A stretch of DNA of 64,000 nucleotides from an uncultured Spirochaetota bacterium (GTDB taxonomy: Bacteria > Spirochaetota > UBA4802 > UBA5550). A program made the translations under genes and the position numbers. How positions within the stretch are numbered: position 1 is the first letter of the stretch; every line of letters begins with the position of its first letter. The stretch is from contig OW818666.1 of NCBI GenBank assembly GCA_942493035.1, forward strand, positions 4,294,874-4,358,873. Reading direction: 5' to 3'. Below the pieces are notes generated by a model. That model was not told where the DNA came from, did not search any database, and saw only the letters and a program-made list of their open reading frames with translations. Of the stretch, positions 33,061 through 59,981 are shown in pieces.

Positions 33061-33102
33061 TCATTTCATACTTTTTCTACAGGCTCGTTGTGCGCAGTAT
33101 TT

Positions 33103-33888
33103 TTATTCTATCTCAAAAGATTTTTCTGAAATCAACATAGTTGAAATCAATAATCTTCCTAATTTTGTCGGCTTATAATTATTTGTATTGCTAAAATCAT
33201 TTAATACTTTTTCTAAAGACCTAAATTTATCATTGATAAGTTCTATTTCTTTTGAGCTAGATGATTCTAAACCGTAGCGTAAAGATGTTGGTATTTTAAA
33301 TTCTTTAATAATTAATCCAGATTTACTTAGCTTTGAAACATTTAATCTGTCTTTATTTAATAGAATTTCATGTTTCTCTAAATCTTTTGATTGAAATTTA
33401 TGTATTTGAAATAACTCAGGATAATATGTATTAAACTGTTCAGCTTGGGATGCTGTCATTTTATCATGATTACAATAATGATAAAGTATTAGAATTTGTT
33501 CATAATTTAACTCATCAACAATTTGAATAATTTCATCGGCAATATGAATATCAACTTTCTCATCTAAACCATTATTTACTATATTTCCAATCCATTCACA
33601 TTTAGCTTCGAAGTTTGAATTTGTTGATGCCTTTAAACCAGTTTCAATTAATCGGATTTTATTTTGATCTTCAATAATAATTTTAGATAATTCGTTAACC
33701 TTGCTATCAATTGCTTTGAGAAATTTAACAGCTCTATCAAGTCTTTGGTTTGGTATAACGGCACAGATTATCTCACTAAGGACAGGTCCCGCGTAAGGTA
33801 TGATCCCAATAATAGCTCTATTCAAAGCAGCAAGTTTATCGGATAGATTATTATCTAATATTTTTGAATTATCCATCAGAATCCTCAA
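33103..33888 (-). CDS. hypothetical cassette protein (261 aa)
   Basis: ORF bounded by the attC at 33933-34029 and an attC R' box disrupted by the IS1182 end. Confidence 0.5.
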   Translation of the reverse strand: MRILMDNSKILDNNLSDKLAALNRAIIGIIPYAGPVLSEIICAVIPNQRLDRAVKFLKAIDSKVNELSKIIIEDQNKIRLIETGLKASTNSNFEAKCEWIGNIVNNGLDEKVDIHIADEIIQIVDELNYEQILILYHYCNHDKMTASQAEQFNTYYPELFQIHKFQSKDLEKHEILLNKDRLNVSKLSKSGLIIKEFKIPTSLRYGLESSSSKEIELINDKFRSLEKVLNDFSNTNNYKPTKLGRLLISTMLISEKSFEIE

Positions 33889-33932
33889 GAGTATTAATTT
33901 AATGAATCACAGAAATTTTTAAAAATATTGCG

Positions 33933-34029
33933 CACAACGTCTTGCTTACCCGACGTTGCGCGGTCTTTTGCGCAATGTGGCGAAGCCCAAGTGAGGTACT
34001 CCGAACGCCGCGGGTAAGCTTTGTTATCG
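33933..34029 (-). repeat. integron attC-like site (type GCTTACCCG)
   Basis: ACAAC...CTTGCTTACCCGACG...GCCACAT...CGCGGGTAAGC...GTTAT; imperfect inverted repeat with a conserved centre. Confidence 0.7.
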
Positions 34030-34668: not shown

Positions 34669-34745
34669 AGGAAACCTCCTATGTAAAAGATAATAAATTG
34701 TGTGAAAATGTCAAGTATATTAACAAGTATAGTTTAAATGCAATT

Positions 34746-35843
34746 CCTGAATTCAAGTTTGAAATGCAAAAGGAAATTAAAATAGTAGCCTCATGAGAAA
34801 TCTCCATAAAGGATTGAGTCGACCAAAACCAAATCCGAGAGAGATACCCATGAGGCATTTTAAACAAGTACAGTTTGAAGAAAGATTTGTCATGCAAAAA
34901 ATGATTTATTCAGATAAGCCTGTGAAAGAAACTGCTGAATTATTAAATCGTGATAAATCAACAATTTATCGCGAAATTGATAGGAATAAAACAAAAGGCT
35001 ATCATGCACAAGAAGCTCAAGCGGAATATTTAAAGAGGAAAAATTTAAAAAAAAGAAAGCTTGATGTCAATGGCTTACTGCGTTTGATAGTTATAACCTT
35101 TTTAAGGAACGGCGATTCACCCGAATTAATTTCTCAATACCTAAAGACAATGTTTCTGGAAGATGCATCAATGCACTTATCACACGAATCTATATATCAG
35201 TGGTTGTATGCTCAAAAAAATGAAAAGGGTGAATATCGTTTTACTCAATTTTTATTTATAAAACGGAAGAAACGCCAAAATCGCTCAAATACCTATAAAA
35301 ACAGGGCAAAAGATCCTTCGAAAAAGAATATAAGGGAACGCCCTGAAGAAGCAAATGATAAAAGCGAAATAGGCCATCTTGAGGGGGATCTGATTGTAAG
35401 CTCTGGAAATGATGCATATCTTCTTACTCTTGTGGAAAGAAAAGCAGCATTTACATGGGGTATTAAATTGCCTTCAAAAGATGCGGAAACTGTTACACGA
35501 GGAATTACAGAGGCTTTGGGTTCATTACCTGATGGATTTGTTAAATCAATTACATTTGATAATGGTTCAGAATTTTGCATGCATAAGACAATTGAAAATG
35601 CTCTTAACTGTAATGTATATTTTGCTGATCCTTATTCCTCATGGCAACGAGGTCTTAATGAACATATAAATGGGCGTATCAGATATTATCTTCCAAAGAA
35701 AAAAAGTTTCGCACACTTGACAGATGAATTTATTGATGATAGTATTTTTTCTATAAACGCAAGGCCGAGAAAATCCCGTGGTTGGAAATCTCCTGCTGAT
35801 ATTTTAAACTCCCATCTTGTCGCATTTCAAACTTGAATTCAGG
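34746..35843 (+). mobile_element. IS30-family insertion sequence, copy 1 (1098 bp)
   Basis: Perfect 22-bp terminal IRs CCTGAATTCAAGTTTGAAATGC; second copy at 43766-44863. Confidence 0.85.
34793..35836 (+). CDS. IS30-family transposase
   Basis: 347 aa, HTH N-terminus and DDE core (GHLEGDLIV; FDNGSEF). Confidence 0.85.
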   Translation: MRNLHKGLSRPKPNPREIPMRHFKQVQFEERFVMQKMIYSDKPVKETAELLNRDKSTIYREIDRNKTKGYHAQEAQAEYLKRKNLKKRKLDVNGLLRLIVITFLRNGDSPELISQYLKTMFLEDASMHLSHESIYQWLYAQKNEKGEYRFTQFLFIKRKKRQNRSNTYKNRAKDPSKKNIRERPEEANDKSEIGHLEGDLIVSSGNDAYLLTLVERKAAFTWGIKLPSKDAETVTRGITEALGSLPDGFVKSITFDNGSEFCMHKTIENALNCNVYFADPYSSWQRGLNEHINGRIRYYLPKKKSFAHLTDEFIDDSIFSINARPRKSRGWKSPADILNSHLVAFQT

Positions 35844-37476: not shown

Positions 37477-37549
37477 AACGGGGGGGCAAAACATCGGATA
37501 ACAAAGGCTAAACGCAGCGCCGGAGTACCGGCTTGGGCTGCGCCACATT

Positions 37550-39383
37550 GTGTGTCACGCAAGGAGTATAGAAGATGAAGGAGGGCCCTTCGGAGCCGGT
37601 ATACAGGTACAGGCTTCAAACCGCCTTAAGCTGCATTGGTAAAGAGCTATTGTGGTGAGCGTTAAGGAAAAGGCGTGATAAACACGTCAGGTGCGTTACA
37701 CGGAGACAAACGCAAGTGAATCATTGATGAGGTGTCGAAAGAGCCTACAGTTGAAGTCAAAACCGGGGTACAATGTGGATTTCGGGATAAATCTGAGAGA
37801 AACCTGTCTACTGCTCAGGTGGCTTCCGGCATAAAGATGGTGTGACTGTGTAACAGGCTTTTATATTCAACGTGAGAACCTGTCGTTTTGATGTTAAGGG
37901 AGAACTTCAAGCGGAGGCCCCGCGAGAAAGAGAGTACCGAAGCAAAGCACAGGGGCGGAGTGGTTCGTAGTAGTGAAGAAGTCTCTGTAATGGAGATGGA
38001 GCGAAGGAATCACGTTGTTCAGCTTTAAAGATTGATCAACCGGAAAACGGGAGGAGTTGATTGGATAAAGCAAAACCGTATTATATTTCCAAACATAATG
38101 TCTGGGAAAGCTACAAACAGGTAAAAGCAAACAGGGGTGCTCCCGGCGTTGATGGCGTAAATCTGGCAGATTTTGAGGCAGAATTGAAAAATAATCTGTA
38201 TAAAATCTGGAACCGGATGTCATCTGGAAGTTATGTACCTTCTCCTGTGCGTCGGGTTGAGATACCGAAAAGCGATGGGAAAACCCGGACACTCGGGATT
38301 CCCACAGTGTCTGACCGGATAGCGCAGATGGTAGTCAAACGTGAGCTCGAACCGGTATTGGAAAAAGTATTTCATCACAGCTCTTACGGATATCGCCCGA
38401 TGCGGTCTGCAAAAGATGCTGTTGCAAGTGCCCGTAAAAACTGCTGGAAATACGACTGGGTGTTAGACATCGACATTAAAGGATTTTTCGATAATATCGA
38501 TCATGACCTCATGATGAAAGCAGTACGTCGGCATACAGAAAGCGGATGGGTTAGACTGTACATAGAGCGATGGCTGAAAGCACCCGTTATGACAACTGAA
38601 GAAGGCCTTCAGCAACGAACACAGGGAACACCTCAGGGCGGAGTGATAAGCCCGCTTCTTGCAAATCTGTTTCTTCATTATGCATTTGATGTCTGGATGG
38701 GGAAAAATTATCCGTCAGTATCTTTTGAAAGATATGCGGATGACTGTATCTGTCACTGCCGCACTGAAGATGAGGCAGTCAGGCTGAAGGAAGCGCTGGA
38801 AAAGAGAATGGCTGAATGCAGGCTCGAACTCCATCCGGAAAAGACAAAGATAGTATATTGTAGAGATGACGCAAGAAAGGGCAGCTACCCGGTAGAATGC
38901 TTTGATTTTCTGGGTTTTACATTTAAAGCACGAAGGTCAAAGACGAAGCATGGGAAATATTTTATCAACTTCAGTCCAGCGGCGAGTGATAAGGCATTGA
39001 AGAACATGAGAATAACCATGAAAGCGTGGAATGTTCATCAGCGAAGCAGAGAATCACTTGAGGAATTATCCTGTAGGTTCAATGCGAAAATCAGAGGATG
39101 GATCAACTATTATGGGAGTTTTTACAGATCAGCGATGTACCCGACTTTACGTAATTTTGATTTAATTCTTTCGAGATGGGCAATGAAGAAATATAAACGT
39201 TTAAGAAATCACAAACGGAGAGCCAGGCACTGGATAGAACGTATTGCGATGAAAGAGCCGTGTTTATTTTCGCATTGGAGAATTCTTTACGGTAACGGTT
39301 GAACAACAAGAGCCGGATGAATCGAGAGATTCACGTCCGGTTCCGTGAGAGCGTAGAGGGGAGGTTCCTCTGCGCCACTCGAC
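37550..39383 (+). mobile_element. group II intron (class-C-like), copy 1, 1834 bp
   Basis: Starts GTGTG; domain V GAGCCGGATGAATCGAGAGATTCACGTCCGGTTC after the ORF; ends ...CGAC; identical to copies at 51095 and 53925. Confidence 0.85.
38061..39302 (+). CDS. group II intron reverse transcriptase/maturase (no endonuclease domain)
   Basis: 413 aa, RT domains 0-7 with YADD, plus maturase X domain. Confidence 0.9.
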   Translation: MDKAKPYYISKHNVWESYKQVKANRGAPGVDGVNLADFEAELKNNLYKIWNRMSSGSYVPSPVRRVEIPKSDGKTRTLGIPTVSDRIAQMVVKRELEPVLEKVFHHSSYGYRPMRSAKDAVASARKNCWKYDWVLDIDIKGFFDNIDHDLMMKAVRRHTESGWVRLYIERWLKAPVMTTEEGLQQRTQGTPQGGVISPLLANLFLHYAFDVWMGKNYPSVSFERYADDCICHCRTEDEAVRLKEALEKRMAECRLELHPEKTKIVYCRDDARKGSYPVECFDFLGFTFKARRSKTKHGKYFINFSPAASDKALKNMRITMKAWNVHQRSRESLEELSCRFNAKIRGWINYYGSFYRSAMYPTLRNFDLILSRWAMKKYKRLRNHKRRARHWIERIAMKEPCLFSHWRILYGNG

Positions 39384-39497
39384 AGCAACCTAATGTGGCT
39401 GAATACTTTTAGAACCTGGCAAAAAGATTTTAAAAGAAAATGAATTGAAAAACTCGCTAACGTCAGTTAGCGTGAACGTTATGCGAAAGAGCGGGGG

Positions 39498-40160: not shown

Positions 40161-40696
40161 AAATGTTTTTGTTTAAGAAACTCAATATATTTTTGTAAAT
40201 TCATGATTTTAGGTATATAATCTTTGGGGAAATCTTTCCTATATTTTTCAGGGACAACAAGTCTCACATTATACTTATACATCTCATCTAATTGTGTTTT
40301 TGAAATTCCTTGTTGAAGAGTAAATAAATATTTAACTTCGATTTTATCAGCTTCGTTTAAAATTTGTCGCCATCTATCTTTACAGGTAGTTTTGACAGCA
40401 AGAAATGTCATTTCATTGCCTGGAAATAGAATTTTTTTGTATAATTCAATATTTGGAAAAATAAAATCAGGTTTTTTATTCTGTTCTGTTACTGCTTGTG
40501 CAGAAAAAGGTATATGGTTTTCATCAAACATATATGATAAATGATTCTCTAGAGAATGACCGGCCCTTGATTTTCTCCTATTTAAAATGGAGTTTGCGAC
40601 CATTACTAAATTTTCAACTGAATCAAAAGTCTTACTAATGTATTGTTTATATCTATCATTTTCAGTACACAGATTCTTCCTGGAACCATCGAGCAT
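40157..40696 (-). CDS. small nuclease-like protein, possibly PD-(D/E)XK; N-terminus fused to IS1182-derived sequence
   Basis: 179 aa, 4-bp overlap with the glycosylase gene; the first 12 codons or so lie in the IS1182 fragment. Confidence 0.35.
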   Translation of the reverse strand: MLDGSRKNLCTENDRYKQYISKTFDSVENLVMVANSILNRRKSRAGHSLENHLSYMFDENHIPFSAQAVTEQNKKPDFIFPNIELYKKILFPGNEMTFLAVKTTCKDRWRQILNEADKIEVKYLFTLQQGISKTQLDEMYKYNVRLVVPEKYRKDFPKDYIPKIMNLQKYIEFLKQKHL

Positions 40697-42115
40697 ACCA
40701 TAAACTGGATGGTGGATAACAGGATTGATCTTTCAGGATTATCAAAGAAATACAAAAATGATTTTACAGGCGCCCCAGCTTACGATCCGGCAATATTATT
40801 AAAAATAATTCTGCTGGCATATTCCCGCGGAATTATTTCATCACGAATGATAATGAAAGCCTGCCATGAGAATATAATATTCAGAGCTTTATCAGCAGAC
40901 AGCATGCCCGATTTCACTACTATAGCATCTTTTATAAGAGAGATGAAGGATGATGTAAAAACAATATTCACAAACGTGCTACTTGTATGTAATGAGATGA
41001 ATTTATTAGGCGGAACCGAGTTTGCTCTTGACGGATGCAAGATGAGTTCAAACGCAGCTAAAGAGAACAGCGGAACATTTTCTGATTTGAAGAAAAAAAA
41101 GGATAAACTTGAATCTACTGTGAGTTTTCTTTTGAAAAAGCAGATTGAAAACGACTCTGACGATTTTAACGGGAAAGAGAATAATACCGTAAATATTGAG
41201 CAGAGAGTTGAACGTCTTGTGAAAAAGGCAGACAAGATAGAAAAGTTTCTTAAAGAAAAAACACCAAAGTTAAAAACCCGAAGCGGTGAGTGCCAGAGCA
41301 ATATCACTGATAACGAGAGCGCGAAAATGAAAACATCGCATGGAGTAATTCAGGGATATAACGGTTTGGCACTGGTTGATGCAAAACATCAGGTTGTTGT
41401 TAATGCCGAAGCCTTTGGCTCGGGTCATGAGCATGATCTCCTTGTACCAATGATCGAAGGAGCAAAGAAAAATTCAGAAGCTATTGGTCTTGGCTCTAAT
41501 TATTATAAAGGGAAAAGGATTATAGCAGATACAGGTTCATTCAAGGAGGAGAATCTTGAATATCTGTCCTCGGAGGAAATAGACGCATACATTCCGGACC
41601 AGCAATTCCGCAAACGTGATCCGAGGTTTTTAACAATGAGCAGACATAAAAACCATGGTGATAAACCATACACAAAAGATGATTTTAAATATGACAAGGC
41701 ATGCGACAGTTTCACATGTCCTGCCGGTAAATTACTGAAATACTCAGTTAACCAGAAACTTGCTAACACCGAAGGGAGAAGATATATTTCATCAAGAAGC
41801 AACTGTAATGAATGCATTTTAAGGAATAAATGTCTCCGCTCTGAGAAGACACGATATAGAACTCTTTATGTAGTTGATAAATATTTTGACCGCAACTATT
41901 CCGAAGAGATGAAATTAACAATTGATACAATTGAAGGCCGTGAAATTTACAGCAGGAGGATGGGTATTGTTGAGCCTGTATTTGGCAATATCAGAAGTTG
42001 TAAAAATATCTGCAGATTTACTTTAAGGACAAAGAACAAAGTGAATATCCAATGGATTTTATATACGATTGTTCATAACATAGAAAAGATAAGCAGATAC
42101 GGAACTACTGTGTGA
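40643..42115 (+). CDS. IS1182-family DDE transposase (N-terminus replaced)
   Basis: 490 aa; shares 120 identical residues with the 32629-33060 fragment. Confidence 0.8.
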   Translation: MFISIIFSTQILPGTIEHTINWMVDNRIDLSGLSKKYKNDFTGAPAYDPAILLKIILLAYSRGIISSRMIMKACHENIIFRALSADSMPDFTTIASFIREMKDDVKTIFTNVLLVCNEMNLLGGTEFALDGCKMSSNAAKENSGTFSDLKKKKDKLESTVSFLLKKQIENDSDDFNGKENNTVNIEQRVERLVKKADKIEKFLKEKTPKLKTRSGECQSNITDNESAKMKTSHGVIQGYNGLALVDAKHQVVVNAEAFGSGHEHDLLVPMIEGAKKNSEAIGLGSNYYKGKRIIADTGSFKEENLEYLSSEEIDAYIPDQQFRKRDPRFLTMSRHKNHGDKPYTKDDFKYDKACDSFTCPAGKLLKYSVNQKLANTEGRRYISSRSNCNECILRNKCLRSEKTRYRTLYVVDKYFDRNYSEEMKLTIDTIEGREIYSRRMGIVEPVFGNIRSCKNICRFTLRTKNKVNIQWILYTIVHNIEKISRYGTTV

Positions 42116-42228
42116 TTCAGGGATAATAAGTGAAATATATACTTCCCGGATAAGAAATGTTATATAAAAATTAAGTTGATTTTTCAGAATAACAGTAGTT
42201 TAATAATTAATGCTTTTTCTACAGGCTC
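40660..42228 (+). mobile_element. IS1182-family element, 5'-truncated copy
   Basis: Right terminal IR CTTTTTCTACAGGCTC at 42213-42228; homology to the other partial copy begins near 40660. Confidence 0.75.
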
Positions 42229-42273
42229 AACAAAGGCTAAACGCGGCGCTCGGAGTACCTCGCTTGGCCTTCG
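42229..42273 (+). repeat. attC 5' half (R'' side) between IS1182 and IS110
   Basis: AACAAAGGCTAAACGCGGCGCTCGGAGTACCTCGCTTGGCC. Confidence 0.7.
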
Positions 42274-43760
42274 GTCTTACTATGTCAAGTTTTCTAAAAA
42301 AATAATCATGCAATTTTTCTTTTTTTAAGAAAAATCTCTTTATCATATACAGTTTTATCTTTCCACATTCTAAATATTATCTTAACCCATTTATTCGAAA
42401 GAGCACGAATAGCAGAAGAATGGTTACATCCTTTTTTACGTAATAGATCATAATATTCGCGAGTCCACGCTTCAAGGCTCAAACTGCAAAATGAGAATTG
42501 ATATAATGTATCCCTAAATGATTTATTACAACCTCTTCGCATTTTAATGACATGTAAATATTTCCCACTCTGAATTGTTACTGGACATGTACCGGCATAA
42601 CATTGAACAGTTTGATACGATTCAAAACGCTTTTGTACATCCCCAAAATGCATTAAAAGTCTTGGAGCTAGTCGATCAGCAGCACCCGGCAATGAAGAAA
42701 ATATTGTTGAATATTCATTCGCAGCGTACAACATTAATATTTTTTCTTCTACCTGTTTTATCGATTTCATAAGGAACAGTAATTGATCAACAATAATCAA
42801 CACTCTCAAGGAATAACATTCCTGTATAGTTTTATTAGGAGATATTGTTTGATCCTTTAATAAACAATAAAATTCTGACTTCCTTTTTTTAGTCATATAT
42901 TTAACATCTTTAATCAACTCAAGATAGTCTTCGAAAGTTGCATTTATTATCTGTTCCGGTTTATTTAAAACTTTCAATAAATTCAGTGGAACGCTCGTAA
43001 AACCGTCAAAAAAGTCTGTAAATATAGGGAAATACTGATGCAAGTCGTTCTTCAACCTGTTTTCAAAACGCGTTTTTTCTTGTAAAAGCATTTCAAGTGT
43101 TTTGCCGTGCATTTTTAACGCTTCACAATTGTTACTAGATTTTATTATCGGGGTAAAGCGATTAAAATCCTTAAAAAGTATTAGTGCAATATTGTACGCA
43201 TCAAAGTTATCATCTTTTTTTGAGGACACCGAATATCGGTCTTTAAATCTATTAACACAAAAAGGATTCAATCCATAAACCTGATAACCTAAAGCAAGAA
43301 GATAATCCGCAAGAATATTTTTATCTGTTTCAATACCGATGAAAATTTCCTCCTTTGCAGAATGTATATTTTCAATTGCATCAATCAATTTCTTAAAGCC
43401 CTGTTTCGTTACATCAAAACGAAACTTGTTGACAACTTCCTCCTTTTCATTTAAAATACATACATCATCATGTGTTGACGACCAATCAATACCAATGTAA
43501 GTTTTCATAAGTCGCTCCTTTTATAGATATTGTGGAAACCTTTTATTCCATTTCGCCTATATATCAGGAGCTCTCGATGGAGCATACTTACTATAAATGG
43601 TATTGAAAGGTTATATAATTCGGGAGAACAGAACCGCAGGAAGTCTTTGTTAGGCAGGCACATTGAGTTCTTCCCGAATTATCCAGTATAAAAAGAATAA
43701 GTATCAATTCAGATGACACAAAGAATAAAAATCTGAATTAATACAAACATAACATATAGG
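42274..43760 (-). mobile_element. IS110-family element, copy 1 (about 1487 bp), inserted in an attC centre
   Basis: Identical to 45820-47306; no terminal IRs; flanks are attC halves. Confidence 0.8.
42306..43508 (-). CDS. IS110-family (DEDD) transposase
   Basis: 400 aa; N-terminal YIGIDWS motif and C-terminal transposase_20-like domain. Confidence 0.85.
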   Translation of the reverse strand: MKTYIGIDWSSTHDDVCILNEKEEVVNKFRFDVTKQGFKKLIDAIENIHSAKEEIFIGIETDKNILADYLLALGYQVYGLNPFCVNRFKDRYSVSSKKDDNFDAYNIALILFKDFNRFTPIIKSSNNCEALKMHGKTLEMLLQEKTRFENRLKNDLHQYFPIFTDFFDGFTSVPLNLLKVLNKPEQIINATFEDYLELIKDVKYMTKKRKSEFYCLLKDQTISPNKTIQECYSLRVLIIVDQLLFLMKSIKQVEEKILMLYAANEYSTIFSSLPGAADRLAPRLLMHFGDVQKRFESYQTVQCYAGTCPVTIQSGKYLHVIKMRRGCNKSFRDTLYQFSFCSLSLEAWTREYYDLLRKKGCNHSSAIRALSNKWVKIIFRMWKDKTVYDKEIFLKKRKIA

Positions 43761-43765
43761 CACAC

Positions 43766-44863
43766 CCTGAATTCAAGTTTGAAATGCGACAAGATGGGAG
43801 TTTAAAATATCAGCAGGAGATTTCCAACCACGGGATTTTCTCGGCCTTGCGTTTATAGAAAAAATACTATCATCAATAAATTCATCTGTCAAGTGTGCGA
43901 AACTTTTTTTCTTTGGAAGATAATATCTGATACGCCCATTTATATGTTCATTAAGACCTCGTTGCCATGAGGAATAAGGATCAGCAAAATATACATTACA
44001 GTTAAGAGCATTTTCAATTGTCTTATGCATGCAAAATTCTGAACCATTATCAAATGTAATTGATTTAATAAATCCATCAGGTAATGAACCCAAAGCCTCT
44101 GTAATTCCTCGTGTAACAGTTTCCGCATCTTTTGAAGGCAATTTAATACCCCATGTAAATGCTGCTTTTCTTTCCACAAGAGTAAGAAGATATGCATCAT
44201 TTCCAGAGCTTACAATCAGATCCCCCTCAAGATGGCCTATTTCGCTTTTATCATTTGCTTCTTCAGGGCGTTCCCTTATATTCTTTTTCGAAGGATCTTT
44301 TGCCCTGTTTTTATAGGTATTTGAGCGATTTTGGCGTTTCTTCCGTTTTATAAATAAAAATTGAGTAAAACGATATTCACCCTTTTCATTTTTTTGAGCA
44401 TACAACCACTGATATATAGATTCGTGTGATAAGTGCATTGATGCATCTTCCAGAAACATTGTCTTTAGGTATTGAGAAATTAATTCGGGTGAATCGCCGT
44501 TCCTTAAAAAGGTTATAACTATCAAACGCAGTAAGCCATTGACATCAAGCTTTCTTTTTTTTAAATTTTTCCTCTTTAAATATTCCGCTTGAGCTTCTTG
44601 TGCATGATAGCCTTTTGTTTTATTCCTATCAATTTCGCGATAAACTGTTGATTTATCACGATTTAATAATTCAGCAGTTTCTTTCACAGGCTTATCTGAA
44701 TAAATCATTTTTTGCATGACAAATCTTTCTTCAAACTGTACTTGTTTAAAATGCCTCATGGGTATCTCTCTCGGATTTGGTTTTGGTCGACTCAATCCTT
44801 TATGGAGATTTCTCATGAGGCTACTATTTTAATTTCCTTTTGCATTTCAAACTTGAATTCAGG
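43766..44863 (-). mobile_element. IS30-family insertion sequence, copy 2
   Basis: Same 22-bp IRs; 2 amino-acid differences from copy 1; inserted 5 bp from the IS110 copy 1 end. Confidence 0.85.
43773..44816 (-). CDS. IS30-family transposase
   Basis: 347 aa, near-identical to 34793-35836. Confidence 0.85.
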   Translation of the reverse strand: MRNLHKGLSRPKPNPREIPMRHFKQVQFEERFVMQKMIYSDKPVKETAELLNRDKSTVYREIDRNKTKGYHAQEAQAEYLKRKNLKKRKLDVNGLLRLIVITFLRNGDSPELISQYLKTMFLEDASMHLSHESIYQWLYAQKNEKGEYRFTQFLFIKRKKRQNRSNTYKNRAKDPSKKNIRERPEEANDKSEIGHLEGDLIVSSGNDAYLLTLVERKAAFTWGIKLPSKDAETVTRGITEALGSLPDGFIKSITFDNGSEFCMHKTIENALNCNVYFADPYSSWQRGLNEHINGRIRYYLPKKKSFAHLTDEFIDDSIFSINARPRKSRGWKSPADILNSHLVAFQT

Positions 44864-44870
44864 AATTGCC

Positions 44871-45007
44871 GATAACGTCTTGGCTAACTGACGTTAGCGA
44901 GTTTTTCAACCTATTTTTTTAAAAATCTTTTTGCCAGGTACTAAAAGTATTCAGCCACATTATGTTGCTAATGTGGCCCTTAAGGCCCAAGCCGGTACTC
45001 CGGCGCC
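44871..45007 (-). repeat. attC-like site (type GGCTAAC)
   Basis: GATAACGTCTTGGCTAACTGACGTTAGCGAG...GCCACATTATGTTGCTAATGTGGC...GGTACTCCGGCGCCGCTGTTAGCCTTTGTTATGC. Confidence 0.75.
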
Positions 45008-45054
45008 GCTGTTAGCCTTTGTTATGCGAAGGTCTGCCCCCGGTTTTCAATAAT

Positions 45055-45387
45055 TTAAGTTCTCAATAATCTCCTTAAGATTATATCTTCAAAATTTCTT
45101 CTTGAGTCAATCATTGAAAGAATATATACTTTTTGTTCTTCTATTCTATAAACTATTCGCCATGGAGTTATAATCAATTCCCGATAATTAGAAATGTTAT
45201 GGAAATCAAGTTCAGGAACAGTTCTTCCTCGTTCAGGAAAATTTTCTAATTTGATTGTTTGCTTTTTAATTATTTCAAATATTTCTTCAGCCGTATTCAG
45301 GCTGTCTAATGAAATGTATTCAATTATTTCAATAAGATCATCTTGTGCAATTTTTGTCCAATATACTGTATATTTTTTTGATGTCAT
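45055..45387 (-). CDS. parE: ParE/RelE-family toxin
   Basis: 110 aa with a RelE/ParE-fold pattern; downstream of and coupled to a Phd/YefM gene. Confidence 0.7.
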   Translation of the reverse strand: MTSKKYTVYWTKIAQDDLIEIIEYISLDSLNTAEEIFEIIKKQTIKLENFPERGRTVPELDFHNISNYRELIITPWRIVYRIEEQKVYILSMIDSRRNFEDIILRRLLRT

Positions 45388-45391
45388 GTTC

Positions 45392-45670
45392 TTATCTTTT
45401 TTTTAGAATTTTATCTTCGATAGCAGAAAAGAATGAATTCTGTTCCGTGAATTTGCTATTTTTTACATCTTTTTCTCCCATGGAGATCAGTTTTAAAATT
45501 CCTATTGCGTTTTGCATTGAATCATAACTTTCTGTATCCATTAATACAGCTTTTGCTTCACCATTTTGAGTTATGATAATTGGACGATGAGTTTCGTTAA
45601 CTTGATCAAGCATGTTCGCAGCATTAGCTTTTACGAAAGAAATGGGGCGTATATCTTGTTTAGTATTCAT
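45392..45670 (-). CDS. Phd/YefM-family antitoxin
   Basis: 92 aa (PISFVKANAANMLDQV...IIITQNGEAKAVLM). Confidence 0.7.
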   Translation of the reverse strand: MNTKQDIRPISFVKANAANMLDQVNETHRPIIITQNGEAKAVLMDTESYDSMQNAIGILKLISMGEKDVKNSKFTEQNSFFSAIEDKILKKR

Positions 45671-45770
45671 TTTTTTTCCTCAAATGTGTTTGTATTGGTC
45701 TAAATATGGTACTAAATTAAGTTTTAAAGGTCAAGAATAATTTTCAAAAAACGACGGGGGCAGACTTTTG

Positions 45771-45819
45771 CATAACGCCTTGCTTACACGACGTTGCGGC
45801 GGCCGTTTGCCGCAATGTG
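45771..45819 (-). repeat. attC 3' half (R' side) abutting IS110 copy 2
   Basis: CATAACGCCTTGCTTACACGACGTTGCGGCGGCCGTTTGCCGCAATGTG. Confidence 0.7.
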
Positions 45820-47306
45820 CCTATATGTTATGTTTGTATTAATTCAGATTTTTATTCTTTGTGTCATCTGAATTGATACTTATTCTTTTTATACTGGATA
45901 ATTCGGGAAGAACTCAATGTGCCTGCCTAACAAAGACTTCCTGCGGTTCTGTTCTCCCGAATTATATAACCTTTCAATACCATTTATAGTAAGTATGCTC
46001 CATCGAGAGCTCCTGATATATAGGCGAAATGGAATAAAAGGTTTCCACAATATCTATAAAAGGAGCGACTTATGAAAACTTACATTGGTATTGATTGGTC
46101 GTCAACACATGATGATGTATGTATTTTAAATGAAAAGGAGGAAGTTGTCAACAAGTTTCGTTTTGATGTAACGAAACAGGGCTTTAAGAAATTGATTGAT
46201 GCAATTGAAAATATACATTCTGCAAAGGAGGAAATTTTCATCGGTATTGAAACAGATAAAAATATTCTTGCGGATTATCTTCTTGCTTTAGGTTATCAGG
46301 TTTATGGATTGAATCCTTTTTGTGTTAATAGATTTAAAGACCGATATTCGGTGTCCTCAAAAAAAGATGATAACTTTGATGCGTACAATATTGCACTAAT
46401 ACTTTTTAAGGATTTTAATCGCTTTACCCCGATAATAAAATCTAGTAACAATTGTGAAGCGTTAAAAATGCACGGCAAAACACTTGAAATGCTTTTACAA
46501 GAAAAAACGCGTTTTGAAAACAGGTTGAAGAACGACTTGCATCAGTATTTCCCTATATTTACAGACTTTTTTGACGGTTTTACGAGCGTTCCACTGAATT
46601 TATTGAAAGTTTTAAATAAACCGGAACAGATAATAAATGCAACTTTCGAAGACTATCTTGAGTTGATTAAAGATGTTAAATATATGACTAAAAAAAGGAA
46701 GTCAGAATTTTATTGTTTATTAAAGGATCAAACAATATCTCCTAATAAAACTATACAGGAATGTTATTCCTTGAGAGTGTTGATTATTGTTGATCAATTA
46801 CTGTTCCTTATGAAATCGATAAAACAGGTAGAAGAAAAAATATTAATGTTGTACGCTGCGAATGAATATTCAACAATATTTTCTTCATTGCCGGGTGCTG
46901 CTGATCGACTAGCTCCAAGACTTTTAATGCATTTTGGGGATGTACAAAAGCGTTTTGAATCGTATCAAACTGTTCAATGTTATGCCGGTACATGTCCAGT
47001 AACAATTCAGAGTGGGAAATATTTACATGTCATTAAAATGCGAAGAGGTTGTAATAAATCATTTAGGGATACATTATATCAATTCTCATTTTGCAGTTTG
47101 AGCCTTGAAGCGTGGACTCGCGAATATTATGATCTATTACGTAAAAAAGGATGTAACCATTCTTCTGCTATTCGTGCTCTTTCGAATAAATGGGTTAAGA
47201 TAATATTTAGAATGTGGAAAGATAAAACTGTATATGATAAAGAGATTTTTCTTAAAAAAAGAAAAATTGCATGATTATTTTTTTAGAAAACTTGACATAG
47301 TAAGAC
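45820..47306 (+). mobile_element. IS110-family element, copy 2
   Basis: Identical to copy 1; inserted between ATGTG and GCGAAG of an attC centre. Confidence 0.8.
46072..47274 (+). CDS. IS110-family (DEDD) transposase
   Basis: 400 aa, identical to 42306-43508. Confidence 0.85.
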   Translation: MKTYIGIDWSSTHDDVCILNEKEEVVNKFRFDVTKQGFKKLIDAIENIHSAKEEIFIGIETDKNILADYLLALGYQVYGLNPFCVNRFKDRYSVSSKKDDNFDAYNIALILFKDFNRFTPIIKSSNNCEALKMHGKTLEMLLQEKTRFENRLKNDLHQYFPIFTDFFDGFTSVPLNLLKVLNKPEQIINATFEDYLELIKDVKYMTKKRKSEFYCLLKDQTISPNKTIQECYSLRVLIIVDQLLFLMKSIKQVEEKILMLYAANEYSTIFSSLPGAADRLAPRLLMHFGDVQKRFESYQTVQCYAGTCPVTIQSGKYLHVIKMRRGCNKSFRDTLYQFSFCSLSLEAWTREYYDLLRKKGCNHSSAIRALSNKWVKIIFRMWKDKTVYDKEIFLKKRKIA

Positions 47307-47355
47307 CGAAGGCCAAGCGAGGTACTCCGAGCGAAGCGTATAAGCTTTGTTATAT
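47307..47355 (-). repeat. attC 5' half (R'' side) after IS110 copy 2
   Basis: CGAAGGCCAAGCGAGGTACTCCGAGCGAAGCGTATAAGCTTTGTTATAT. Confidence 0.7.
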
Positions 47356-47422
47356 GACGTTGGGCAATGCACTTAAAGTTTGTCCCTGTTGAGTCAAGGA
47401 CGACGAAACAGGTTGTAAAAGT

Positions 47423-47758
47423 TTAACCTACTAATTTATACTTTTTTAAAGATGACTTATCTTTTTTAAGTATAGAAAGCATTCTTTGCGCTGGCCCTGC
47501 AGGATGATTCTTTCCTGATTCCCACGCCTCTACAGTTTTTTTTGAAACACCTAAAACGTATGCAAAGATTGATTGTGTTAAACCTAATTCATTTCGTATT
47601 TCCTTTATTTCTTTTCCTTTATAATCTGGAAGCGGGGCAACGGTCATAGTATGAGATTTTAGTCCTTTTACTTTTTCACCCTTTTCATATTTTATAGCTT
47701 CTTCTAATGAATTGATTAAATTTTCACCAATGGTTAAATCTTTATAAGTTTTTTTCAT
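47423..47758 (-). CDS. higA: HigA-like XRE-family HTH antitoxin
   Basis: HTH (IFAYVLGVSKKTVEAWESGK). Confidence 0.65.
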   Translation of the reverse strand: MKKTYKDLTIGENLINSLEEAIKYEKGEKVKGLKSHTMTVAPLPDYKGKEIKEIRNELGLTQSIFAYVLGVSKKTVEAWESGKNHPAGPAQRMLSILKKDKSSLKKYKLVG

Positions 47759-48101
47759 CTTTTTTTCTCCTTAATTCATTTTTAAGGTCTGTAACAAGTT
47801 GTTTTATTATTTTCTTTTCTTTATCACTGATATTGTCTTTCTGATTTTTAGAGTAAGCCATCAAGAGATATATTTTTTCATACACGATAAAGTCTATGTA
47901 TAGTACCCTTATACCGCCGCTTTTGCCTCTATTTTTTAGAGCCCACCTAATTTTTCTAACTCCTCCAGTGCCTTGTATCACCGAACCAGTTTCGGGGTTG
48001 ATGATTAAATATTCTTGGAGATCTTTCAAATCATCATCTGATAATCCAAGATCGTCCCAGGTTTTATTGAAAACATCAAAACTTACAAATTCAATTTTCA
48101 T
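47742..48101 (-). CDS. higB: HigB/RelE-like toxin
   Basis: GGIRVLY...YLL pattern of HigB/RelE toxins; start placed at MKIEFVSF. Confidence 0.6.
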   Translation of the reverse strand: MKIEFVSFDVFNKTWDDLGLSDDDLKDLQEYLIINPETGSVIQGTGGVRKIRWALKNRGKSGGIRVLYIDFIVYEKIYLLMAYSKNQKDNISDKEKKIIKQLVTDLKNELRRKKDEKNL

Positions 48102-48195
48102 ATTGCAAATATATGTCCTATTAGATAGGGTGTCAAGCAAAAAGTTTCATTAAAAAACCGGGCAGGACGCCCGGCCTTAATTTTTTGCCCAATGT

Positions 48196-48301
48196 CATAT
48201 AACGTCTTGCTTAAACGACGTTTGCCAGTTTCACGGTAAATTTTGTATTGAACGAGTTTACCCAACACAAAAAATATTTGCCACTGAAAGTTGGCAAATG
48301 T
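48196..48301 (-). repeat. attC 3' half split by IS21 copy A
   Basis: CATATAACGTCTTGCTTAAACGACGTTTGCC...GCCACTGAAAGTTGGCAAATGTG; the other half lies at 56511-56567. Confidence 0.7.
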
Positions 48302-48476
48302 GCGTATTCCGGCCCAAACCTGCCACTCATTCCGGAAAATGCCTGCCACCTGTTCCGGTGCAAAGTTGCCACCCATTCCGGTTGAAACCTGCCACTTTTA
48401 GGATTTTACCGGAATAAAAAACAAACCATTTCCTTTTAAAACAGAGCCTGATTAATCTGATAAAAAATCAAATCAG

Positions 48477-50054
48477 ATGGAGTTACCGGGCATGTCACAA
48501 AGGAGAATATCGATGAAAAAAATCAGAGAAATCATGCGTCTTCACGAGCAGTCAAAACTTAGTCAGAGACAGATATCCCAAGCCCTTGGAATGTCTCGTC
48601 CGGTCGTCAGCGATTATATTAACAAGGTTAAAACATTCGGATTAACTTTTATTGATATAGAAAATATGCCGGATGAAACGCTTCTAAATATTCTACAGGG
48701 AAATAAAACAGCAGACAATAAACGACATGAAATACTTCAAAAACAATTCCTTCATTTCACGCAGGAGCTAAAACGTCTCGGAGTGACTCGCCAAACTTTG
48801 TGGGAAGAATACATAGAGGAAAATCCAGACGGATACAGTTACTCGCAGTTTTGTTATCATTTTCAGATCTGGCAGAATATGTCAGAGATTACAATGCACA
48901 TTGAACATAAAGCGGGCGACAAACTCTTTGTGGATTTTGCCGGTAAGAAACTTGCCATAACAGACCGGACGACAGGAGAGATAAGAGAGGTTGAAGTTTT
49001 TGTAGCAATCCTGGGAGCAAGCCAGCTTGTCTATGTAGAAGCTTCAATGAGCCAGAAGAAGGAGGAATGGATAAGACTAAATGAAAATGCATTAAGATAC
49101 ATCGATGGTGTTCCACTGGCTATTGTGCCAGACTGCTTAAAATCGGCAGTAACAAAAACAGACAGATACGAACCGGATATCAATCCGGAGTATCTTGATT
49201 TTGCCAGACATTACGGCACAACAATACTTCCTGCACGACCTGCAAAACCGAAAGACAAAGCTCTGGTTGAAGGAGCTGTACGAATTTCATATTCATGGAT
49301 TTACGCCAAGCTTCGTGACCGTGTATTCTTTTCACTTGAAGAACTCAACGCTGCGATCATGGAGTTGCTTGAATCATTCAATTCCCGGACAATGCAGCGA
49401 CCTGGTGTAAGTCGACGGGAACTTTTTGACAGCATTGAAAAGAGTGAACTGCAGCCTCTTCCAGAGGATCTTTATGAAATCAAGAAGTTTAAAATCCTCA
49501 CAGTTCAATTTAACTATCATATCTATCTGAGTGATGACAGTCATTACTACAGTGTGCCATATCGCTATAAAGGGCGGAAAGTAGAAGTACTTTTCACAGA
49601 AAGAGCCGTAGAAGTCTATTGTGGCAACGTAAGAGTCGCCTCACATTTTAGAAACAGGAGAAAAAACGGATACACAACACAAAGGAATCATATGCCGGAA
49701 TCACACAAATGGGAGGATAATTGGAACCCGGAAAAACTGACCAATATTGCAAAACTAAAAGGCGATGCTGTGGTAACTGTAATTGAAATAGTTCTCTCCT
49801 CCCGGCAGCATCCTGAGCAGAGTTATAAAACATGCCTCGGAATATTTGCCCTAACTAAAACATATGGAGAAATCCGACTTAACCGTGCTTGTGAATTGGC
49901 TCTCTACTATGAAAACTGCACATACAAGATGATTAAAAATATTCTAAGCAACAACATGGATCAAGCAGGTGAAGAAGATAAAGACTCGGAATTCACCCTA
50001 CCTGAACATGATAACATAAGAGGCAATCAATATTACATGGAGGAATTACAATGA
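48477..50054 (+). CDS. istA: IS21-family transposase IstA
   Basis: 525 aa; HTH N-terminus, integrase core. Confidence 0.85.
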   Translation: MELPGMSQRRISMKKIREIMRLHEQSKLSQRQISQALGMSRPVVSDYINKVKTFGLTFIDIENMPDETLLNILQGNKTADNKRHEILQKQFLHFTQELKRLGVTRQTLWEEYIEENPDGYSYSQFCYHFQIWQNMSEITMHIEHKAGDKLFVDFAGKKLAITDRTTGEIREVEVFVAILGASQLVYVEASMSQKKEEWIRLNENALRYIDGVPLAIVPDCLKSAVTKTDRYEPDINPEYLDFARHYGTTILPARPAKPKDKALVEGAVRISYSWIYAKLRDRVFFSLEELNAAIMELLESFNSRTMQRPGVSRRELFDSIEKSELQPLPEDLYEIKKFKILTVQFNYHIYLSDDSHYYSVPYRYKGRKVEVLFTERAVEVYCGNVRVASHFRNRRKNGYTTQRNHMPESHKWEDNWNPEKLTNIAKLKGDAVVTVIEIVLSSRQHPEQSYKTCLGIFALTKTYGEIRLNRACELALYYENCTYKMIKNILSNNMDQAGEEDKDSEFTLPEHDNIRGNQYYMEELQ

Positions 50055-50809: not shown

Positions 50810-51094
50810 TGGTTAGTTCGAAAATGGAAATGGATTAAAAGTGGTAAACTTAAAACCGGAATAGGTGGCAGGTTTCACCGGAATACGTAATTTTACCAGA
50901 TAATTTAATAAAACGTCGCGATGAATTGTTAAATTTAAAAAAAACATTATTAGGTGAATCGACTCAGAAAAATAAAACCACAGATTAAAAGTACATCCGT
51001 GTACTTTTAAAAATTTATAGTAATAAACGCCAAAAACATCGTACAACAAAGGCTAACAGCAGCGCCGGAGTACCGGCTTGGGCTTCGCCACATT

Positions 51095-52928
51095 GTGTGT
51101 CACGCAAGGAGTATAGAAGATGAAGGAGGGCCCTTCGGAGCCGGTATACAGGTACAGGCTTCAAACCGCCTTAAGCTGCATTGGTAAAGAGCTATTGTGG
51201 TGAGCGTTAAGGAAAAGGCGTGATAAACACGTCAGGTGCGTTACACGGAGACAAACGCAAGTGAATCATTGATGAGGTGTCGAAAGAGCCTACAGTTGAA
51301 GTCAAAACCGGGGTACAATGTGGATTTCGGGATAAATCTGAGAGAAACCTGTCTACTGCTCAGGTGGCTTCCGGCATAAAGATGGTGTGACTGTGTAACA
51401 GGCTTTTATATTCAACGTGAGAACCTGTCGTTTTGATGTTAAGGGAGAACTTCAAGCGGAGGCCCCGCGAGAAAGAGAGTACCGAAGCAAAGCACAGGGG
51501 CGGAGTGGTTCGTAGTAGTGAAGAAGTCTCTGTAATGGAGATGGAGCGAAGGAATCACGTTGTTCAGCTTTAAAGATTGATCAACCGGAAAACGGGAGGA
51601 GTTGATTGGATAAAGCAAAACCGTATTATATTTCCAAACATAATGTCTGGGAAAGCTACAAACAGGTAAAAGCAAACAGGGGTGCTCCCGGCGTTGATGG
51701 CGTAAATCTGGCAGATTTTGAGGCAGAATTGAAAAATAATCTGTATAAAATCTGGAACCGGATGTCATCTGGAAGTTATGTACCTTCTCCTGTGCGTCGG
51801 GTTGAGATACCGAAAAGCGATGGGAAAACCCGGACACTCGGGATTCCCACAGTGTCTGACCGGATAGCGCAGATGGTAGTCAAACGTGAGCTCGAACCGG
51901 TATTGGAAAAAGTATTTCATCACAGCTCTTACGGATATCGCCCGATGCGGTCTGCAAAAGATGCTGTTGCAAGTGCCCGTAAAAACTGCTGGAAATACGA
52001 CTGGGTGTTAGACATCGACATTAAAGGATTTTTCGATAATATCGATCATGACCTCATGATGAAAGCAGTACGTCGGCATACAGAAAGCGGATGGGTTAGA
52101 CTGTACATAGAGCGATGGCTGAAAGCACCCGTTATGACAACTGAAGAAGGCCTTCAGCAACGAACACAGGGAACACCTCAGGGCGGAGTGATAAGCCCGC
52201 TTCTTGCAAATCTGTTTCTTCATTATGCATTTGATGTCTGGATGGGGAAAAATTATCCGTCAGTATCTTTTGAAAGATATGCGGATGACTGTATCTGTCA
52301 CTGCCGCACTGAAGATGAGGCAGTCAGGCTGAAGGAAGCGCTGGAAAAGAGAATGGCTGAATGCAGGCTCGAACTCCATCCGGAAAAGACAAAGATAGTA
52401 TATTGTAGAGATGACGCAAGAAAGGGCAGCTACCCGGTAGAATGCTTTGATTTTCTGGGTTTTACATTTAAAGCACGAAGGTCAAAGACGAAGCATGGGA
52501 AATATTTTATCAACTTCAGTCCAGCGGCGAGTGATAAGGCATTGAAGAACATGAGAATAACCATGAAAGCGTGGAATGTTCATCAGCGAAGCAGAGAATC
52601 ACTTGAGGAATTATCCTGTAGGTTCAATGCGAAAATCAGAGGATGGATCAACTATTATGGGAGTTTTTACAGATCAGCGATGTACCCGACTTTACGTAAT
52701 TTTGATTTAATTCTTTCGAGATGGGCAATGAAGAAATATAAACGTTTAAGAAATCACAAACGGAGAGCCAGGCACTGGATAGAACGTATTGCGATGAAAG
52801 AGCCGTGTTTATTTTCGCATTGGAGAATTCTTTACGGTAACGGTTGAACAACAAGAGCCGGATGAATCGAGAGATTCACGTCCGGTTCCGTGAGAGCGTA
52901 GAGGGGAGGTTCCTCTGCGCCACTCGAC
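51095..52928 (+). mobile_element. group II intron, copy 2
   Basis: Identical to copy 1. Confidence 0.85.
51606..52847 (+). CDS. group II intron RT/maturase
   Basis: Identical 413-aa ORF. Confidence 0.9.
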   Translation: MDKAKPYYISKHNVWESYKQVKANRGAPGVDGVNLADFEAELKNNLYKIWNRMSSGSYVPSPVRRVEIPKSDGKTRTLGIPTVSDRIAQMVVKRELEPVLEKVFHHSSYGYRPMRSAKDAVASARKNCWKYDWVLDIDIKGFFDNIDHDLMMKAVRRHTESGWVRLYIERWLKAPVMTTEEGLQQRTQGTPQGGVISPLLANLFLHYAFDVWMGKNYPSVSFERYADDCICHCRTEDEAVRLKEALEKRMAECRLELHPEKTKIVYCRDDARKGSYPVECFDFLGFTFKARRSKTKHGKYFINFSPAASDKALKNMRITMKAWNVHQRSRESLEELSCRFNAKIRGWINYYGSFYRSAMYPTLRNFDLILSRWAMKKYKRLRNHKRRARHWIERIAMKEPCLFSHWRILYGNG

Positions 52929-53092
52929 AGCAACCTAATGTGGCTGAATACTTTTTGTTTTGGGCAAACTGATTTTTAAAAAAAATGAGTTGTTAAACTC
53001 GCTAACGTCAGTTAGCCAAGACGTTATATGTAATGGCAACAAAATTTAAGACCGGGCGTCCATGCCCGGAGAGAAAAGAGGAAATTAATCCT

Positions 53093-53806: not shown

Positions 53807-53924
53807 GCACAATGCCTTCGCCCATCCGTGGGCTACGGCAGACCGAACTTTGTGTAAATGTTGCCACTACATATAACAAAGGCTAACAGCGGCGCCGGAG
53901 TACCGGCTTGGGCTTCGCCACATT

Positions 53925-55758: not shown

Positions 55759-55861
55759 GCGCAAAAGGCCGCGCAACGTCGGGTAAGCAAGACGTTATGT
55801 GCCATTTTTTTTCTTGACTTTACACATAGAATTGTGTAAATTATTCAGAGAGGTTATTTAT

Positions 55862-59882: not shown

Positions 59883-59981
59883 GTACAACGTCTTGCTTAC
59901 CCGACGTCGCGCGGCCTTTTGCGCGATGTGGCGAAGCCCAAGTGAGGTACTCCGAACGCCGCGGGTAAGCTTTGTTATATG
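59883..59981 (-). repeat. attC-like site (type GCTTACCCG)
   Basis: GTACAACGTCTTGCTTACCCGACGTCGCGCGGCCTTTTGCGCGATGTGGCGAAGCCCAAGTGAGGTACTCCGAACGCCGCGGGTAAGCTTTGTTATAT. Confidence 0.75.

Follow-up and report, generated by a model that had tools for sequence, protein, structure and literature searches.

Two groups within the broad IS110 family of insertion sequences (IS) are among the closest described systems to the element reported here. In the IS110 group proper, as described for IS621 (PMC11208160) and ISEc21 (PMC11187229), a recombinase with a DEDD and a Transposase_20 domain is combined with ends that have no terminal inverted repeats, and the long non-coding left end is the source of an RNA that forms two internal loops. 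The 5' strand of each loop has the top-strand sequence of left arm and core, and the 3' strand is complementary to core and right arm; a 2-nt core is found at both junctions, and the right end has a -35 box for a would-be junction promoter. Members of the IS1111 group are defined by inverted repeats of 7-17 bp, most often 11-13 bp, in a subterminal position; their long non-coding region follows the transposase gene, and their guide RNA has the complement of the top strand first, whereas in the IS110 type the segment that pairs with the bottom strand precedes the one that pairs with the top strand (PMC11208160, PMC11187229). ISMtsp17, with an upstream non-coding region, is an exception in the IS1111 group. 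The IS1111-attC elements ISPa21, ISPst6, ISKpn4 and ISPa25 are, in the accounts of Tetu & Holmes 2008 and Post & Hall 2009 as relayed in PMC11187229 and PMC3001079, RNA-guided IS110-family elements with a fixed position and orientation in attC; they insert near one attC end, antisense to the array (PMC3001079, PMC11187229). In the present study, we analysed a window of 64,000 nt (the whole stretch of DNA, to which all positions are relative) from an uncultured Spirochaetota bacterium (assembly GCA_942493035.1, contig OW818666.1). By its HtpG, with 96% identity to that of HGW-Spirochaetae-5, the host belongs to uncultured Spirochaetota. An initial annotation had described in it two identical copies of an IS110-family element inserted in the centres of attC sites, and had placed them in the IS1111 subgroup. 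Our results indicate that the element is very likely an unnamed IS of the IS110 group proper, that is, an IS621-like and not an IS1111 element, with a bridge RNA programmed for the central hairpin of one attC allele.

The two copies, of 1486 bp each, are 100% identical and inverted relative to each other. Exact identity between them extends over 1518 nt (45816-47333 on the plus strand and 42247-43764 on the minus strand), which is longer than the element because 4 nt of the left flank and 28 nt of the right flank, both attC sequence, are also equal. This identity, together with a 400-amino-acid open reading frame (ORF) carrying IS110 domains, bears out the description of two identical IS110-family copies. 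The ends could be placed with an ambiguity of exactly 2 nt, since CC is present at both junctions, and the same 2 nt were obtained when the empty and the filled site of one metagenome locus (L083) were compared; therefore the limits first given for the copies, 45820-47306 and 42274-43760, are right to within 1 nt. The junctions of copy 2 read AATGTG-CC-TATATG and GTAAGA-CC-GAAGG, or over a longer distance ...GCCGCAATGTG-CC-TATATGTT...CTTGACATAGTAAGA-CC-GAAGGCCAAGCGAGGTACTCCG.... There is no conventional target duplication, as the junctions have only the 2-nt CC in common. In addition, no terminal or subterminal inverted repeat was found when the first and last 80 nt were compared, in agreement with the initial annotation; the best inverted match, 9 of 11, lies in low-complexity T-runs and was reached by 89 of 200 shuffles. 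The element is new and, with two identical copies in the window, apparently active. Two other placements of the boundaries were tried and dropped. A GT core (AAT-GT-G...ATA-GT-AAG) gave way to CC as the shared dinucleotide, which was set by the relatives and the empty site. The identical right flank of 28-34 nt was not counted with the element, since its variation among metagenome copies is that of attC sites. The source contig also carries further broken copies of the transposase gene (proteins P0124, P0125, P0127-P0129), two of which end in the same foreign tail YNEPKK, as if one other element had interrupted both.

Both copies are joined to the attC-like repeat at the same point, AATGTG-CC-...-CC-GAAGGCCAAG, the left attC half being present for copy 2 only. 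This point is in the central hairpin, with the L'' arm on one side and the L' arm on the other, and the transposase gene runs in the R''-to-R' direction. The halves beside copy 2 make up one complete short attC, because their L'' and L' arms pair (GCTTACACG with CGTATAAGC). Copy 1 has the same right junction in a different attC subtype (...GCGTTTAGCCTTTGTT). Thus the earlier statement that attC halves flank both copies is about three-quarters true: it holds for both halves of copy 2 and for the right half of copy 1, and fails for the left side of copy 1. Similarly, a break at a conserved ATGTG is found at one fixed point in both copies, as had been stated, but the sequence split there is the variant ATGTG-CC-GAAGGCCAAG and not the consensus ATGTG/GCGAAGCCCAAG. 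The variant is absent from the other 11 attC right halves of the window, which read GTG-GC-G(A/C)AG-(C/A)CC or have longer stems. None of these 11 is occupied by this element, and each departs from the 14-nt predicted target at two or more positions, core position 1 invariably being one of them. In the 3-bp central stem, the allele that is hit (GCC-GNA-GGC) and the common one (GGC-GNA-GCC) differ by a base-pair flip that leaves the small hairpin intact. It appears to be the CC core that determines which attC alleles receive the element.

Relatives of the element were collected by a protein search and two collection scans, which gave 82 loci; a genome scan with single-sequence peptide patterns returned no relatives, and an alignment-based scan was needed instead. 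Copies from groundwater and other metagenomes, with 88-99% identical protein, have identical guides and the same orientation, and they are flanked by toxin-antitoxin cassettes. Together, the two window copies and contigs from at least six metagenomes provide about eight junction sets, all of which share one nucleotide position within a single repeat family; they cover about four distinct left halves and about five distinct right halves, in short and long attC forms. Insertion of an IS110-family element into attC centres, as proposed at the outset, is therefore supported as specific for site and orientation in all of these sets. The right target is CC-GCAGG in all metagenome copies, a perfect fit to the guide, and CC-GAAGG in the window copies, with one mismatch. 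Furthermore, an empty site was found in L083 (288-307), where an uninterrupted attC, GCCGCAATGTGCCGCAGGCCAAGG, equals the predicted target one cassette upstream of a filled site. This shows that the CC...GG variant is a natural allele and that insertion adds only the element and one CC. In another metagenome locus, L085 (2375-2519), a second element copy starts in the next attC, one cassette downstream of the first, so adjacent attC sites can both be occupied.

Table 1. Coordinates of the element copies, their genes, predicted RNA and guides, and the attC parts beside them (positions in the 64,000-nt window)
Feature	Position	Strand	Remarks
IS110-group element, copy 2	45820-47305	+	1486 bp with one CC core counted; CC core at 45820-45821 and 47306-47307
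IS110-group element, copy 1	42275-43760	-	Inverted relative to copy 2; core copies at 43759-43760 and 42273-42274 (GG on the plus strand)
Transposase (bridge recombinase) gene, copy 2	46072-47274	+	400 amino acids; PF01548, PF02371, NF033542
Transposase gene, copy 1	42306-43508	-	400-amino-acid ORF
Bridge RNA (predicted), copy 2	45895-46050	+	Covariance model R1, 138.6 bits, E = 7e-32; within the 250-nt region 45822-46071
Bridge RNA (predicted), copy 1 equivalent	43530-43685	-	
Left target guide CAAUGUGCC	45915-45923	+	5' strand of first internal loop; equals top strand of left target plus core
Right target guide CCUGCGG	45940-45946	+	3' strand of first internal loop; complement of CC-GCAGG
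Left donor guide AUAGUAAG	45986-45993	+	5' strand of second internal loop; equals subterminal right end ATAGTAAG-A-CC
Right donor guide AUAUAGG	46018-46024	+	3' strand of second internal loop; complement of CC-TATAT (core plus left end)
Candidate promoter of integrated copy, TTGATA-18-GATAAT	45873-45902	+	10 of 12 matches; just upstream of the bridge RNA stems
-35 box TTGACA	47292-47297	+	In the 31-nt right end; read from sequence
Left (R''-L'') half of attC split by copy 2	45772-45819	+	...CATAACGCCTTGCTTACACGACGTTGCGGCGGCCGTTTGCCGCAATGTG, ending ...GCCGCAATGTG; pairs with own cassette start
Right (L'-R') half of attC split by copy 2	47306-47353	+	CCGAAGGCCAAGCGAGGTACTCCGAGCGAAGCGTATAAGCTTTGTTAT
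Right half of attC split by copy 1	42229-42274	-	CCGAAGGCCAAGCGAGGTACTCCGAGCGCCGCGTTTAGCCTTTGTT; end of IS1182-like element adjoins at GTT
Remnant of left target of copy 1, GTGTG	43761-43765	-	IS30-family element begins at about 43766

The match between the bridge RNA and the target was examined guide by guide. A single internal loop, bounded by a long outer stem and a small hairpin, contains both target guides. The left target guide agrees with the flank of copy 2, CAATGTG-CC, at 9 of 9 positions, and the right target guide with the metagenome flanks CCGCAGG (L001, L083-L089, L094) at 7 of 7. The same-sense CAAUGUGCC precedes the antisense CCUGCGG, so that the complement of the bottom strand comes first, which is the IS110 order. 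In six non-redundant relatives with 35-61% protein identity, the loop strands at the same alignment columns matched their own flanks at 56 of 78 positions, while 265 derangements gave a mean of 26.2 and a maximum of 33. For example, the loop strand is AACCACGG in L005, with its own flank CCGTGGTT, and UUCGACCUCC in L008, with GCCGACCTCC; L007 has CACGCGG for the flank CCGCGTG, and L003 has CCGAGG for CCTCGG. On the donor side, position 6 of the left donor guide changes among relatives in step with the right end (A, T or C, and GGG in a further subgroup), and in L010 the donor guide AUAUUAGGG pairs with the left end CCCTAATAT. Accordingly, a structured RNA with a target and a donor loop around a shared core is encoded at the left end, as in the IS110 group, with the difference that the left donor guide does not cover the core.

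The stems of the RNA also covary. The RNAalifold consensus of alignment A3 has compensatory changes in 17 of 31 pairs. In alignment A4, pairing reaches 93.8% of the cells, compared with 70.8% for shuffles and no more than 50% with the partners slid, and 25 of 27 pairs change on both sides, counts which lean towards the structure because this alignment was fitted to the model. In the fetched loci, covariance model R1, which was derived from the RNAalifold structure, had 40 matches, all on the transposase strand save that of window copy 1, and nearly all just upstream of the gene. R1 had no match on R751 (IS4321), ISEsa2-like and Streptomyces loci, and no Rfam family matches the bridge RNA. In two metagenome loci (L026, 3706-3852; L028, 3440-3585) the R1 match lies downstream of the matched transposase gene, which could be a second tandem element or a 3'-located RNA.

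The product of the transposase gene has the N-terminal DEDD (RuvC-like) and C-terminal Transposase_20 domains of the broad IS110 family (DEDD_Tnp_IS110, PF01548, 9.5e-29; Transposase_20, PF02371, 1.3e-14), and it scored 143.1 bits with NCBIfam NF033542 (IS110 family RNA-guided transposase), for which the cut-off is 140. These domains and the fixed attC junctions support the family-level proposal of an attC-targeting IS110-family element. The non-coding DNA amounts to 250 nt upstream of the gene (45822-46071 in copy 2) and 31 nt downstream, and the long upstream region is also found in relatives L001-L009 and L064-L077. The same layout is present in elements of 35-61% identity (L002, L003, L005-L009, and L064, L076 and L077 from Leptospira), in which the left end begins CC-TATAT and the right end finishes CATAGTNAG(A)-CC. 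The best annotated relative is ISEsa2-like, with 30% identity over 98% of the length, and this element of about 1510 bp has 235 nt of non-coding DNA upstream and 36 nt downstream. Length and layout are therefore alike in the two; ISEsa2-like elements, known from enterobacterial plasmids, differ in having no R1 match and in not lying in attC sites in the records examined. The features listed at the beginning for IS621 and the IS110 group were all found in the window element, from the recombinase domains and the left-end RNA with its loop design to the 2-nt core and the right-end -35 box. The element differs from that group in its core, CC and not CT, and in its protein, 400 amino acids against about 326-341. 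It also differs from IS621 in a left donor guide that ends 1 nt before the core and in a natural target that is the structured centre of attC.

The attC nature of the repeats was considered in its own right. An array of one- or two-gene units, mostly toxin-antitoxin pairs, occupies the window from about 33.1 kb to its end; the units are separated by a conserved imperfect palindrome, with at least 13 sites in 30 kb. Seven intact repeat copies align well as (C/T)ATAAC-GTCTT-GGCTAAC..., a variable centre, and ...AATGTG-GCGAAGCC-CAAG-C(GA)GGTACTCCG...GTTAGCC-TTT-GTTAT. By their variable centre they fall into forms of 94 nt and 150 nt, and their single strands fold into the R-box, spacer, L-box and variable-centre shape of attC sites. 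The R''/R' and L''/L' palindrome is present, with a loose fit to RYYYAAC/GTTRRRY. The sites, which end in ATAAC...GTTAT, are spaced at 665-855 bp, or roughly 0.7-0.9 kb. Six co-linear cassettes were compared (45021-45776, 47349-48203, 59974-60758, 60899-61753, 61896-62613 and 62756-63420). In all six, the cassette's own ends are complementary at 18-22 of 26 nt, against 9-18 with the physically adjacent half-site. This pairing, between the first nucleotides after GTT and the last before AAC, is cassette-specific, with one or two fixed mismatches near position 10-11, and it implies that a circular cassette would have an unusually long R-box stem. Since cassette-specific end pairing is what G/TT recombination of a circular cassette would leave, the sites were called attC-type on this ground, together with their layout and the introns described below. 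We regard them, with little doubt, as the attC-type sites of a cassette cluster without a nearby integrase.

The strongest of the competing explanations, though an improbable one, is that these repeats belong to some other class of structured repeat, similar to repetitive extragenic palindromic (REP) sequences, bacterial interspersed mosaic elements or miniature inverted-repeat transposable elements, and that the element targets them as ISPpu9 and ISPa11 target REP sequences. Those IS110-family elements likewise use short, structured, multicopy repeats as targets, and unlike the present element they have REP targets, ISPa11 being in addition of IS1111 type. The absence of intI from the window, the loose fit of the R boxes and an end complementarity of 18-22 nt, longer than in classical cassettes, are in favour of this explanation, and related elements in Leptospira and metagenomes do target other palindromic sequences. 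However, it leaves aside the density of the sites around one- or two-gene units that are mostly toxin-antitoxin pairs, the R''-spacer-L''...L'-spacer-R' layout with its variable centre in 94- or 150-nt forms, the end pairing that fits G/TT recombination, and the group II introns in the bottom strand; moreover, integrons are known in Spirochaetota (PMC4889954, PMC3607928). With regard to Leptospira, the flanks of loci L064, L076 and L077 have no cassette-like repeat arrays. In Leptospira vanthielii (NZ_AOGY02000046.1; L077, 1-64), the contig end bears ATGTGCCGAAGGCCAAGCGAG, identical to the attC core that flanks the IS in the window. It is 45 nt from a 37%-identical relative that is inserted elsewhere (..GCCAAT-CC-CTGGCGC..) and in the opposite orientation. 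The attC-like repeat family may thus also occur in Leptospira.

Assignment to the IS1111 subgroup, as a new IS1111-attC element like ISPa21, ISPst6 and ISKpn4 with a downstream seekRNA and subterminal repeats, was the proposal of the initial annotation, and in the light of the present data it is very improbable. The broad family, with its DEDD_Tnp_IS110 and Transposase_20 domains, and the attC niche are indeed the same, and the published attC-targeting elements of the IS110 family are all of IS1111 type. The 11-13 bp subterminal repeats, downstream guide RNA, reverse guide order and proteobacterial integrons attributed to these elements in the accounts cited above are absent here. A subterminal inverted repeat is lacking, the gene is followed by only 31 nt, the RNA model matches upstream only, where the RNA covaries, and the guides follow the IS110 order. 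The comparison with IS1111-attC junctions points the same way, as those elements lie near one attC end and antisense, whereas the window element is central and sense, with its transposase gene in the R''-to-R' direction. Furthermore, IS4321 of the IS1111 group is only 22% identical over 147 amino acids, and the best annotated relative has the IS110 layout. The match to the solved structures of IS621 and ISCro4 is also weak, being confined to the C-terminal third (E about 1e-6 to 1e-7 against PDB); the similarity to either side is equally weak and therefore does not classify the element.

Least probable of all is that the two copies and their shared flanks arose by duplication and inversion of a segment through homologous recombination and not by independent targeted insertion: the array is heavily rearranged, with inverted attC blocks, inverted IS30-, IS21- and IS1182-like pairs and inverted attC-plus-flank duplicates, and the right flanks are identical for 28 nt, but these 28 nt are the conserved attC core, past which the flanks split into two attC subtypes (...GTATAAGCTTTGTTAT and ...GTTTAGCCTTTGTT), no duplicated sequence of the kind such an event predicts is present beyond the attC halves, and the same junction occurs in other attC sites of metagenome copies, with an empty site in addition.

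Some observations weigh against the assignment of the element to the attC-targeting IS110 group proper. No integron integrase (IntI) gene and no tyrosine-recombinase motif or domain was found in the 64-kb window, and therefore the attC label rests on structure and array organisation and not on IntI or an IntegronFinder call. The distance of the transposase from IS621/ISCro4 is about the same as from IS4321, and the group is assigned by architecture and RNA, not by a tree. The right target guide agrees with both window copies (CCGAAGG) at 6 of 7 positions, with one A/G mismatch. The left donor guide agrees with ATAGTAAG and ends 1 nt before the CC core, so the register proposed for the donor loop is provisional. 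Finally, copy 1 has no left target half, because an IS30-family element lies 5 bp from that end. An attempt to restore this half by undoing the inversion between the IS30-family copies was abandoned, as the flanks rebuild no attC and no target duplication is seen.

The element of the IS110 group proper could move by a cycle modelled on the published work on IS621 and ISEc21. From that work come the circular form, the promoter at its junction, the recombination chemistry and the idea that an occupied attC has probably lost its function; the anatomy, junctions, empty site and covariation of guides and stems that the cycle would connect were observed directly. The element would be released from the chromosome in circular form, with its right end linked to its left end through the CC core (...TTGACATAGTAAGA-CC-TATATGTTATG...). 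The joined ends would put TTGACA (47292-47297) 17 nt from TATGTT (45827-45832), and by analogy this pair may form a junction promoter on circularisation that reads into the bridge RNA and the transposase gene. A -35-like hexamer is found at a constant distance from the right end in relatives. For the integrated copy, the candidate promoter TTGATA-18-GATAAT is weak evidence, because promoter-like sites in the region are no more numerous than in shuffles. The bridge RNA, with its two internal loops, would then bridge the circle junction and the attC centre, its second loop (AUAGUAAG and AUAUAGG) pairing with the element's own joined ends, and the DEDD/serine recombinase would exchange strands at the CC dinucleotide. 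Such a cycle would account for entry in one orientation, with the transposase gene R''-to-R', and for the absence of any duplication beyond the shared CC. Only attC sites with the central stem GCC-GNA-GGC would be hit, and the common GGC-GNA-GCC form would be spared. Insertion would be expected into GTGCCGCAGGCC, at a lower rate into GTGCCGAAGGCC, and not into GTGGCGAAGCCC.

Other mobile elements are present in the same array. Three identical group II introns on the plus strand (37540-39400, 51090-52945 and 53920-55775) were identified by Rfam D1-D4 and domain V/VI matches, with a reverse transcriptase/maturase ORF at, for example, 38061-39302. They are located in the attC bottom strand (opposite to the ATAAC to GTTAT sense) at GCT/AATGTGGCG, 6 nt 5' of the core of the IS110-group element, in short and long attC forms. 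Published group IIC-attC introns have the same strand relation to attC (PMC3001079). Such introns, which are retroelements, likewise home into attC by RNA-DNA pairing, and unlike the present element they act by reverse splicing and on the opposite strand. Two IS21-family left ends (CGTATTCCGG...) were seen, from 48303 onward (transposase gene 48477-50054, plus strand) and from 56565 onward (57401-58978, minus strand). These ends adjoin AAATGTG/ and /TAAATGTG of attC sites in opposite orientations, which suggests one insertion with a 7-8 bp duplication in the conserved block that was later split by inversion. Four 23-nt repeats at 48306-48396 resemble the multiple terminal repeats of an IS21-family element. 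The 10-bp block AATGTG(G/C)C is used by the IS110-group element, by the group IIC introns on the opposite strand and by the IS21-family element. The earlier remark that all three use one block is thus approximately right, with the introns 6 nt away on the other strand and the IS21-family ends adjoining AAATGTG.

An IS1182-like element (DDE_Tnp_1_6) occupies about 40500-42228, with its transposase gene at 40643-42115 on the plus strand. Its end, ...CTTTTTCTACAGGCTC, adjoins GTT of the R' box of the copy 1 attC at 42228/42229, and the same terminal sequence at 33071-33086 adjoins GTTGTGCGC, the start of the cassette 33087-33938. A plausible history is insertion at the crossover triplet used by the integrase, with an inversion later, although the fragment at 32668-33086 matches the full copy in part only. 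Two IS30-family copies, at 34740-35843 on the plus strand and about 43766-44863 on the minus strand, are 99.8% identical and inverted. The second is separated by 5 bp from the left end of copy 1, and its far side borders directly on an intact attC (44872-45025); it has no visible target duplication and therefore marks a rearrangement breakpoint. Identical attC right halves with the following cassette start (GTTATATGTAGTGGCAACATTTACACAAAGTTCGGT) are found inverted at 53873-53925 on the minus strand and 60853-60935 on the plus strand. Such inverted duplicates and the attC blocks in minus orientation at 36.8-37.6 and 51.0-56.6 kb show that the array underwent several inversions.

Attack on attC sites by an IS of the IS110 family has so far been described only for the IS1111-attC lineage of proteobacterial integrons, and in our full-text literature searches no attC-targeting member of the IS110 group proper came to light. 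The branch with an upstream bridge RNA has come independently to the same class of target; it did so in a different phylum, with its insertion point elsewhere in the site and its orientation reversed. Since the mechanism is already known from published work, this is an incremental advance; what is added is a natural case whose guide and donor, like its occupied and unoccupied sites, are legible in the sequence itself, with one mismatch tolerated. We offer only tentatively, as a rather doubtful idea, that the flip to GGC/GCC, by which the CC core is lost together with a position of the right target, represents an escape variant, that the attC centre is a battleground to which the three kinds of mobile element came independently, and that pressure from such elements, and not the needs of the integrase, shapes attC centres in this spirochaete lineage. 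Elements of this kind interrupt attC sites and, as the window shows, provide inverted repeats by which cassette arrays are scrambled, which bears on how attC clusters become parted from their integrase.

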